Source of the DNA: Shigella phage CT01
Sequence record: OK018184
DNA length: 64,000 bases
Reading direction: 5' to 3' (one strand)
This document shows positions 5,453 through 6,697 of the stretch, in pieces (positions within the stretch are counted from its first letter, which is position 1; every line of letters starts with the position of its first letter). Under the pieces are notes generated by a model. That model was not told the DNA's origin. It saw only the letters and a program-made list of their open reading frames with translations, and ran no database searches. A program made the translations under genes and the position numbers.

Positions 5453-5539
5453 TGGTGGGGAGTGGTGGAGTCGAACCACCCGAGTCGCAATGACAATGGA
5501 TTTACAGTCCACACCGCTACCTCTACGGGATAACTCCCC
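5453..5539 (-). tRNA. tRNA-Tyr (anticodon GUA), type II
   Basis: acceptor ggggagt/actcccc, T arm ggtgg-agtcgaa-ccacc, long variable arm, anticodon loop CUGUAAA. Confidence 0.6.
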
Positions 5540-5548
5540 AAATTAATT

Positions 5549-5623
5549 TGGTGGCCCTGGGTGGAATTGAACCACCATCTGGCGATTATGAGTCGCTTGC
5601 TTGAACCTTCCAGCTACAGGGCC
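5549..5623 (-). tRNA. tRNA with CAU anticodon (Ile2 or Met), copy 1
   Basis: acceptor ggccctg/cagggcc, T arm ggtgg-aattgaa-ccacc, anticodon loop CUCAUAA; position matches T4 tRNA-Ile. Confidence 0.6.
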
Positions 5624-5624
5624 T

Positions 5625-5700
5625 TGGTGCTGATTGACGGAATCGAACCGCCGACCTTCTCATTACAAGTGAGTTGCTCTACCTACTGAGCTAAATCAGC
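5625..5700 (-). tRNA. tRNA-Thr (UGU), copy 1
   Basis: acceptor gctgatt/aatcagc, anticodon loop CUUGUAA. Confidence 0.7.
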
Positions 5701-5705
5701 AAAAC

Positions 5706-5795
5706 TGGCGGAGGCGATAGGATTTGAACCTATGAGTCGCCGGAGCGACTGCCGGTTTTCAAGACCGGTGCATTAAACCACTCTGCCACGCCTCC
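5706..5795 (-). tRNA. tRNA-Ser (UGA), type II, copy 1
   Basis: acceptor ggaggcg/cgcctcc, long variable arm, anticodon loop CUUGAAA. Confidence 0.7.
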
Positions 5796-5797
5796 AG

Positions 5798-5871
5798 TCT
5801 CCATACAAGGATTTGAACCTTGGACCTCCTGATCCCAAATCAGGCGCTCTACCAAACTGAGCTACACGGAG
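5798..5871 (-). tRNA. tRNA-Pro (UGG), copy 1
   Basis: acceptor ctccata/cacggag (two G-U pairs), anticodon loop UUUGGGA; CCA not encoded. Confidence 0.6.
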
Positions 5872-5881
5872 TAAATTAAAT

Positions 5882-5955
5882 TGGAGCGGATAATGAGAAT
5901 CGAACTCACATCATCAGATTGGAAGTCTGAGGTAATGCCATTATACGATATCCGC
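5882..5955 (-). tRNA. tRNA-Gly (UCC), copy 1
   Basis: acceptor gcggata/tatccgc, anticodon loop CUUCCAA. Confidence 0.7.
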
Positions 5956-5960
5956 AAATT

Positions 5961-6047
5961 TGGTGCGAGAAGTGGGACTCGAACCCACAAGGAAATCATT
6001 CCGCAGCATTTTAAGTGCTGTGCCTTTACCAATTTGACCATTCTCGC
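5961..6047 (-). tRNA. tRNA-Leu (UAA), type II, copy 1
   Basis: acceptor gcgagaa/ttctcgc, T arm gtggg-actcgaa-cccac, long variable arm, anticodon loop CUUAAAA. Confidence 0.7.
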
Positions 6048-6048
6048 G

Positions 6049-6115
6049 CTGGGAATAAAGGACTCGAACCTTTGCATCCTGGAATCAAAATCCAGTGCCT
6101 TACCAATAACTCCCC
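6049..6115 (-). pseudogene. chimeric pseudo-tRNA at duplication junction (tRNA-Gln 3' body fused to tRNA-Tyr 5' end)
   Basis: Gln T arm and anticodon arm intact to 6106, then the sequence switches to the tRNA-Tyr 5' terminus; D-stem 5' strand lost and acceptor strands no longer pair. Confidence 0.6.
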
Positions 6116-6124
6116 AAATTAATT

Positions 6125-6199
6125 TGGTGGCCCTGGGTGGAATTGAACCACCATCTGGCGATTATGAGTCGCTTGCTTGAACCTTCCAGCTACAGGGCC
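6125..6199 (-). tRNA. tRNA with CAU anticodon (Ile2 or Met), copy 2
   Basis: identical to copy 1, offset +576. Confidence 0.6.
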
Positions 6200-6200
6200 T

Positions 6201-6276
6201 TGGTGCTGATTGACGGAATCGAACCGCCGACCTTCTCATTACAAGTGAGTTGCTCTACCTACTGAGCTAAATCAGC
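6201..6276 (-). tRNA. tRNA-Thr (UGU), copy 2
   Basis: identical to copy 1, offset +576. Confidence 0.7.
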
Positions 6277-6281
6277 AAAAC

Positions 6282-6371
6282 TGGCGGAGGCGATAGGATT
6301 TGAACCTATGAGTCGCCGGAGCGACTGCCGGTTTTCAAGACCGGTGCATTAAACCACTCTGCCACGCCTCC
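6282..6371 (-). tRNA. tRNA-Ser (UGA), copy 2
   Basis: identical to copy 1, offset +576. Confidence 0.7.
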
Positions 6372-6373
6372 AG

Positions 6374-6447
6374 TCTCCATACAAGGATTTGAACCTTGGA
6401 CCTCCTGATCCCAAATCAGGCGCTCTACCAAACTGAGCTACACGGAG
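6374..6447 (-). tRNA. tRNA-Pro (UGG), copy 2
   Basis: identical to copy 1, offset +576. Confidence 0.6.
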
Positions 6448-6457
6448 TAAATTAAAT

Positions 6458-6531
6458 TGGAGCGGATAATGAGAATCGAACTCACATCATCAGATTGGAA
6501 GTCTGAGGTAATGCCATTATACGATATCCGC
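6458..6531 (-). tRNA. tRNA-Gly (UCC), copy 2
   Basis: identical to copy 1, offset +576. Confidence 0.7.
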
Positions 6532-6536
6532 AAATT

Positions 6537-6623
6537 TGGTGCGAGAAGTGGGACTCGAACCCACAAGGAAATCATTCCGCAGCATTTTAAGTGCTGTGCC
6601 TTTACCAATTTGACCATTCTCGC
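6537..6623 (-). tRNA. tRNA-Leu (UAA), copy 2
   Basis: identical to copy 1, offset +576. Confidence 0.7.
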
Positions 6624-6624
6624 G

Positions 6625-6697
6625 CTGGGAATAAAGGACTCGAACCTTTGCATCCTGGAATCAAAATCCAGTGCCTTACCAACTTGGCTAATTCCCA
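6625..6697 (-). tRNA. tRNA-Gln (UUG), the only intact copy
   Basis: acceptor tgggaat/attccca, T arm aaagg-actcgaa-ccttt, anticodon loop UUUUGAU. Confidence 0.7.

Follow-up and report, generated by a model that had tools for sequence, protein, structure and literature searches.

Tandem amplification under selection has been described repeatedly in T-even phages. T4 challenged with ToxIN carries segmental amplifications of dmd-tifA whose junction microhomology is typically 6-10 bp (Srikant, Guegler and Laub, eLife 2022, PMC9391042), and the older T4 rII and Hp17 duplications have 2-10 bp of microhomology at their junctions (cited in PMC9391042). The closest precedent comes from the transfer RNA (tRNA) cluster of T6, which escapes a tRNA-Tyr-cleaving Septu system via tandem 718-bp repeats of tRNA-Tyr and a truncated segB (Chihara et al., Nat Commun 2026, PMC13096335). 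This amplification requires the nuclease activity of SegB together with UvsX/UvsY, the repeats collapse when selection is removed, and phage tRNA dosage can be of importance against tRNA-targeting defences (PMC13096335). SegB recognises a T-loop motif and cleaves within most tRNA genes of segB-less relatives (PMC2330249), and it is able to act in trans or to arrive with a co-infecting phage (PMC13096335, PMC2330249). Broken T4 genomes are rejoined by UvsX-dependent minihomology end joining, a route that yields rearrangements: wild-type deletions are flanked by repeats of 3-13 nt, and homology-free events were confined to a mutant with uvsX deleted (Wu et al., mBio 2021, PMC8262927). Here we describe a perfect tandem duplication of 576 bp in the tRNA cluster of Shigella phage CT01 (sequence record OK018184), within a stretch of 64,000 nucleotides, hereafter the window, which is that of a Tequatrovirus with EcNP1 and Nami as its nearest INPHARED records (98% identity over 25 kb). 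We give roughly even odds (about 0.5) to its being a real, recent and unstable head-to-tail duplication in the tRNA operon of a wild EcNP1-related Tequatrovirus; the sequence alone does not separate this reading from an artefact of assembly.

Direct comparison shows that positions 5530-6106 equal positions 6106-6682 exactly, giving 577 consecutive matches at a period of 576. This bears out the identity of 5530-6105 and 6106-6681 claimed in the initial annotation, and it rules out a chance or low-complexity repeat. The copies are adjacent and in the same orientation, with one novel junction at 6105-6107, which is a tandem head-to-tail layout. A general repeat search also lists the pair at a spacing of 576, and the tandem-repeat program TRF returns nothing for it because the longest period that it considers is 500. 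The left breakpoint, 5529|5530, falls between nt 10 and 11 of tRNA-Tyr, and the right breakpoint lies inside tRNA-Gln, between nt 15/16 and 16/17. As the single A at 6106 fits either side, the junction has 1 nt of microhomology, in agreement with the figure of about 1 bp given earlier. The sequence across it reads ...CCTTACCAATAACTCCCC..., and the elements of the duplication are:

5530..6105, minus strand: copy 1 of the 576-bp unit, the downstream copy along transcription, identical to 6106-6681; it contains the Gln body (nt 16/17-74), Leu, Gly, Pro, Ser, Thr, Ile2(CAU), a 9-nt spacer and Tyr nt 1-10.
6106..6681, minus strand: copy 2 of the 576-bp unit, the upstream copy, which runs on into the sole intact tRNA-Gln.
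6105..6107, no strand: novel junction, ...CCTTACCA[A]TAACTCCCC..., whose two sides share the A at 6106 and no other base.

Position 5529 of the window (tRNA-Tyr nt 11), which adjoins the left breakpoint, is itself a G/A polymorphism, with A in EcNP1, Nami, HY01 and PEC04; an A at this position would have raised the junction microhomology to 2 nt.

ARAGORN with default settings predicts 16 tRNA genes, all of them on the minus strand, and these calls comprise:

5294-5369, minus strand: tRNA-Arg(UCU), single copy, downstream of the duplication.
5374-5448, minus strand: tRNA-Asn(GUU), single copy, downstream of the duplication.
5453-5539, minus strand: tRNA-Tyr(GUA), intact.
5549-5623, minus strand: CAU-anticodon tRNA, copy 1, called Met/Ile(CAT); its second copy is at 6125-6199.
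5625-5700, minus strand: tRNA-Thr, copy 1.
5706-5795, minus strand: tRNA-Ser, copy 1.
5797-5871, minus strand: tRNA-Pro, copy 1.
5882-5955, minus strand: tRNA-Gly, copy 1.
5961-6047, minus strand: tRNA-Leu, copy 1.
6125-6623, minus strand: copy 2 of the CAU, Thr, Ser, Pro, Gly and Leu tRNAs.
6624-6697, minus strand: tRNA-Gln(UUG), the only intact Gln and the first gene of the cluster, scoring 67.4 bits with Rfam.

In order of transcription the cluster therefore runs Gln, Leu-Gly-Pro-Ser-Thr-CAU, a junction element, Leu-Gly-Pro-Ser-Thr-CAU, Tyr, Asn and Arg, and all ten original tRNA genes are still intact. The six tRNAs said to be doubled (Ile/Met(CAU), Thr, Ser, Pro, Gly and Leu) are recovered by ARAGORN in both copies, and only the second Gln is intact, as had been proposed with a start 1 nt away (6625-6697). 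The first of these labels can be narrowed: the anticodon is indeed CAU and ARAGORN leaves the choice between Met and Ile open, but the best Escherichia coli matches of this tRNA are annotated as tRNA-Ile (81.6% identity, full length). By this similarity it is a tRNA of the Ile2 type and not Met, in which case the reading of AUA would need lysidine modification.

The junction element is the fusion of a Gln body to the Tyr 5' end that had earlier been placed at 6049-6115, and its boundaries agree with that placement to within 1 nt:

6048..6115, minus strand: chimeric pseudo-tRNA of 68 nt, Tyr nt 1-10 (GGGGAGTTAT) joined to Gln nt 16/17-74.

Its minimum-free-energy fold has a 6-bp acceptor-like stem, the UUG anticodon arm of Gln and a T arm, and is without a D arm. 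On the Rfam model RF00005 it obtains 32.6 bits, which is above the gathering score of 29 and about half of what the intact Gln obtains, but it lacks the full cloverleaf with a D arm that defines a canonical tRNA. Default ARAGORN makes no call at 6048-6115, and the element is called only at a relaxed threshold of 80% or in mitochondrial mode.

Upstream of the cluster a consensus scan alone picks out two promoter-like sites:

7704-7732, minus strand: T4 early-type promoter-like site.
8070-8098, minus strand: second T4 early-type promoter-like site.

As the same scan finds no consensus promoter match inside the 576-bp unit, both copies are likely to be co-transcribed from upstream promoters. The window also has direct repeats of ~54 nt at 3473-3526, 3811-3864, 7693-7746 and 8059-8112, which on the minus strand resemble T4 early-promoter-like elements (GTTTACA ... 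TG-n-TACTAT).

The comparison with Tequatrovirus tRNA regions that the initial annotation had called for returns relatives with a single copy and a T4-like gene order. The position of the cluster is that seen in T4, between the tRNA.2-4 open reading frames (ORFs) and the e-side ORFs, and in the best-matching relatives listed the 1601-nt region corresponds to ~1025 nt, i.e. one copy. The unit matches 686 phage records at 688 places; at E<=1e-100 there are 511 INPHARED records with 512 places, and the one INPHARED record with two strong matches is not among the 60 matches listed. Judged by these alignments the unit is single copy across ~500-690 related records. Among the relatives is a SPAdes metagenome contig (ENA ERZ19289331 NODE_892, our locus L013), which is 100% identical to the window over 4295-6106 and 99.93% identical over 6106-10343 and has one copy of the unit. 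Since so nearly identical a haplotype is single copy, the duplication, if real, is younger than any detectable divergence, and the claim that perfect identity implies a recent event holds in this sense; together with the single copy of the other relatives, the same haplotype rules out the duplication as a lineage-wide feature. No INPHARED record contains the junction when searched with a 52-nt query centred on it, with seeds accepted only across the junction, and its exact 32-mer is not in IMG/VR, the JGI metagenomes or the GTDB genomes. Exact-protein look-ups with the flanking ORFs, gp5 and a 310-aa gp30.2 discussed below return only single-copy relatives, or nothing.

Several features are shared with T6: both are T-even phages whose tRNA cluster contains perfect repeats arranged head to tail, the units are of similar size (718 bp in T6, 576 bp here), tRNA gene dosage is raised, and instability without selection is to be expected here as well. 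In T6 (AP018814) the sole direct repeat at a spacing of 718 is CTAAT (5 nt), which links the 3' region of segB to Tyr nt 1 and its spacer; we infer that it is the 718-bp junction, in agreement with the published description (PMC13096335). So placed, the T6 junction is 10 nt from the left breakpoint of the 576-bp unit. Given the T6 amplification and the cutting of tRNA genes by SegB, the site of the duplication is a known hotspot. However, the T6 unit extends downstream of the Tyr 5' end, over Tyr and the truncated segB, whereas the 576-bp unit extends upstream, over Ile2, Thr, Ser, Pro, Gly, Leu and part of Gln, without a functional Tyr. Further, the junction shares 1 nt here as against 5 nt in T6, there are two copies here as against many-copy ladders in T6, and segB is not found in the 64-kb window. 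The T6 segB gene (L045 257-922; AP018814.1 65756-66421), a GIY-YIG homing endonuclease according to PMC13096335, is annotated as 'serine recombinase' and looks misannotated.

With the T4 dmd-tifA, rII and Hp17 events the locus shares a tandem segmental duplication in a T4-type genome, which headful packaging tolerates and recombination reverses, but those were selected in the laboratory and have longer microhomology than the 1 nt seen here. Compared with the products of UvsX-dependent minihomology joining, the 576-bp junction instead resembles the homology-free class. Order, strand and position follow the canonical T4 tRNA operon (Gln-Leu-Gly-Pro-Ser-Thr-Ile ... Arg, with variants in T2L, RB1 and RB3), and as in T4 the cluster adjoins tRNA.2 (PF27001 Phage_T4_Y07B) and the e-side ORFs. 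Nami and EcNP1 have the identical layout in single copy; unlike the canonical operon, the window has six genes twice and one chimeric remnant. Thus, tandem amplification in T-even genomes, the tRNA cluster included, has already been described, and what this locus would add, if real, is a different tRNA content and an atypical, nearly homology-free junction.

The window contains a second perfect tandem duplication:

61679-61771 and 61772-61864, minus strand: 93 bp x 2, period 93, exactly 93 matches, 0 nt of microhomology.

Its junction reads GATGATTAT|TAGGTCTAT. It falls inside the gene 30.2 homologue (61644-62576, minus strand), keeps the reading frame and doubles a segment of 31 aa (NHLYHPYQTHPFQTWNYIKPGGIEYLYNRP), and the product is 310 aa long as against 278-287 aa in relatives. 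The event sits in the Tyr/Pro/His-rich C-terminal tail of gp30.2, which varies among relatives through short repeat insertions of the PYxTHPY type. The region is single copy in the best-matching relatives listed, the junction is not in INPHARED, IMG/VR or the JGI metagenomes, and an exact-protein look-up finds no 310-aa gp30.2 on record. In 524 kb of related loci we found no perfect tandem duplication of period >=30. The cause of the tRNA duplication probably lies in this particular genome or in its assembly.

The initial annotation had set three readings side by side without choosing between them: a change in gene dosage, an unstable duplication of the T-even kind, or an assembly artefact. 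This interpretation is supported in part. In favour of the T-even kind are the documented amplification of the T6 tRNA cluster and a boundary within 10 nt of the T6 junction, but a number of results weigh against it and against the duplication being real. The 1 nt of microhomology is at chance level, as random breakpoint pairs in the window give <=1 nt in 82% of trials (0 nt in 53%, 1 nt in 29%), whereas the T4 junctions in the papers cited have ~3-13 nt, or typically 6-10 bp, and the T6 unit has 5 nt. In the ancestral cluster 108 direct-repeat pairs of >=6 nt at spacings of 100-1000 nt were available, and none was used. A tblastn search detects no SegB or other GIY-YIG homologue within the window, in which an HNH-type ORF is represented only by a remnant of 44 aa; the breakpoints are off the SegB motifs, and the RAWTSGAAC motifs are found in the T arms of Asn, Thr and Gly. 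The second private perfect duplication, with 0 nt of microhomology and 55.7 kb from the tRNA one, makes a pattern that fits two untrimmed contig joins, and neither junction, that of 576 bp or that of 93 bp, was found in the other public collections searched. Of the recombination genes that bear on a possible recombination-defective background, uvsY (47352-47765) and uvsW are intact in the window, and uvsX lies outside it.

Several specific routes to the junction were considered and set aside. Placing the breakpoints at SegB sites is not supported, as cutting at the Ile and Gln SegB sites, followed by resection and joining, has a geometry that does not fit; nor is the CCAA adjoining the Gln breakpoint supported as a SegB site, being without an upstream T-loop motif. 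An in-register homeologous crossover between the Tyr and Gln 5' ends (9/12 identical) would give a period of 582 and a full-length hybrid, and with the observed join 6 nt out of register it was rejected as unparsimonious.

Untrimmed overlaps between contigs or at circularisation are a known class of false duplications in deposited genomes. Such a finishing or assembly artefact, in which a 576-bp contig overlap was abutted untrimmed when the sequence was ordered or rotated to the T4 convention and the phage itself has one copy, is the most serious competitor, and we consider it quite possible though short of probable. The overlap might be that of two adjacent contigs or of the two ends of a circularly permuted contig, with the 93-bp duplication as the other untrimmed join. 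Members of this class have identical adjacent copies, arbitrary boundaries that cut genes and junction homology at chance level, and are not in relatives, all of which is seen here: the copies are perfect, the junctions (1 nt and 0 nt) are unlike those reported for T4, 64 kb hold two private perfect tandem duplications where the 524 kb of related loci hold none, the ~500-690 relatives have one copy of either duplicated region, and, as already said, neither junction nor the 310-aa gp30.2 is otherwise on record. Moreover, the window coordinates follow Nami, which is in standard orientation, at an offset of ~64 kb, suggesting rotation or reference ordering after assembly. On the other hand, an assembler based on a de Bruijn graph cannot create a junction that is missing from the reads, and hence the artefact needs concatenation by hand or by a scaffolder; 576, being even, is no de Bruijn k value; and a single circularisation overlap would account for one duplication but not for the other. 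The sites are not random but biologically plausible hotspots, namely the tRNA cluster and the repeat-variable tail of gp30.2, the 93-bp event is in frame, and there is no assembly noise elsewhere in the window. The boundaries are also off strain-variable sites, with the exception of 5529, which varies in 2/29 loci surveyed, its G/A polymorphism among these being confined to EcNP1/Nami; the boundary bases of the 93-bp event are invariant in the few matching loci. A variant in which the artefact arises from assembly-graph nodes bounded by single-nucleotide polymorphisms is not supported, as the right boundary is invariant in 28 loci, and a shared assembly-graph node would give a period of 577 instead of the observed 576. 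An untrimmed overlap would leave no junction reads and no excess depth.

Two public records bear on this class of artefact. An NCBI assembly entry (GCA_025336695.1, JAODFN010000001.1; L027) has T4-like sequence on a contig of 489,447 nt, ~three phage genome lengths, and the T4-like Shigella phage KNP5 (KX452698/NC_055713), at 193,624 nt, exceeds its relatives by ~27 kb. Each may be a concatemer assembly or one with untrimmed redundancy, in which case finishing artefacts do occur in public T4-like data.

A change in dosage of a more durable sort, that is, an older and stably kept adaptive doubling of the six tRNA genes with the copies held identical by gene conversion, appears very improbable. 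The intactness of all tRNA genes would be in keeping with it, and tRNA dosage can matter against tRNA-targeting defences (PMC13096335); but the doubling is shared neither by the ~500-690 relatives nor by the 100%-identical metagenomic haplotype, there are zero differences across 576 bp, and T-even amplifications collapse fast without selection (PMC13096335).

A real and recent duplication, the reading that we favour at even odds, is in keeping with an exact head-to-tail repeat in which every intact tRNA has been kept. The rest of the window is clean when compared with EcNP1: there are no ambiguous bases (Ns), indels within genes are multiples of three, and the sole 1-nt indel is intergenic. 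The in-frame position of the 93-bp event in a repeat-variable tail and the location of the 576-bp event in a documented hotspot point the same way. A graph assembler that traverses a loop once also gives exactly two copies.

Under a real duplication, Gln nt 16/17 of one parental molecule would have become connected to Tyr nt 10/11 of another, which repeats the Ile2, Thr, Ser, Pro, Gly and Leu genes in line and adds the Tyr/Gln chimera that has no D arm. The join would have followed a homology-independent route, such as a template switch or the rejoining of sister genomes that had broken, instead of the usual UvsX-dependent minihomology, and a homing-endonuclease break supplied by a co-infecting segB+ relative could have started the event. 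A single long early transcript from the upstream promoters would cover both sets, with approximately doubled template for six tRNAs. RNase P and host 3' processing enzymes would then free Ile2, Thr, Ser, Pro, Gly and Leu in two doses and Gln, Tyr, Asn and Arg in one. The chimera would keep an acceptor/T-arm stack recognisable by RNase P, and, having no D arm, is probably cut out and degraded, not charged. Unless selection maintains it, the repeat would be lost in a few passages through recombination between the 576-bp copies, and the duplication is on this account likely to be a transient 'accordion' state and not a fixed trait. We also entertain a bolder version, in which a segB-less wild phage has its tRNA accordion, formed by a homology-independent join such as the ligation of sister genomes cut by the homing endonuclease of a co-infecting phage, maintained by selection against a tRNA-targeting host defence, with the chimera as a possible decoy and the gp30.2 tail expanding likewise; this is unlikely.

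If the duplication is real, it would be a case from the field of a tRNA-cluster amplification not demonstrated until 2026, in T6 escapers from the laboratory, with a different tRNA set and a junction that bypasses the usual minihomology repair of T4. It would suggest that tRNA-dosage accordions exist outside selection experiments and arise via a second mechanism, and were the segB-less accordion true, it would be the natural, microhomology-free counterpart of the laboratory result with T6 and Septu. If it is an artefact, the record over-counts tRNA genes (16 instead of 10) and gp30.2 is falsely lengthened, and both errors need correction before comparative use of the genome.

The window shows some further differences from its relatives. 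At 10212-10343, between the gp3 and gp2 homologues, lies a 182-nt insertion relative to EcNP1 that codes for 44 aa, an exact match to the C-terminal end of a 219-aa HNH-type ORF, which is intact in L013 and in two other related loci (L030 and L031); from this match, it looks like the remnant of a lost mobile endonuclease gene. Comparison of 4308-4584 with the corresponding EcNP1 locus (L032, 4353-5265) shows that an ORF of ~146 aa present in EcNP1 and Nami is missing from the window; it lay between a 116-aa ORF and the next gene, a typical mosaic gain or loss of accessory genes. In the intergenic region downstream of uvsY, 47104-47127 holds a 12-nt tandem repeat (TTATATATCTAT x2, with 7 further matching bases); compared with EcNP1 it amounts to an insertion of 12 nt, probably from slippage. 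At 55778-59638 there are two tandem Alt-like ADP-ribosyltransferase paralogues with ~70% DNA identity at a spacing of ~2095 nt; as EcNP1 has the pair too, it represents an old, diverged duplication, unlike the perfect ones.

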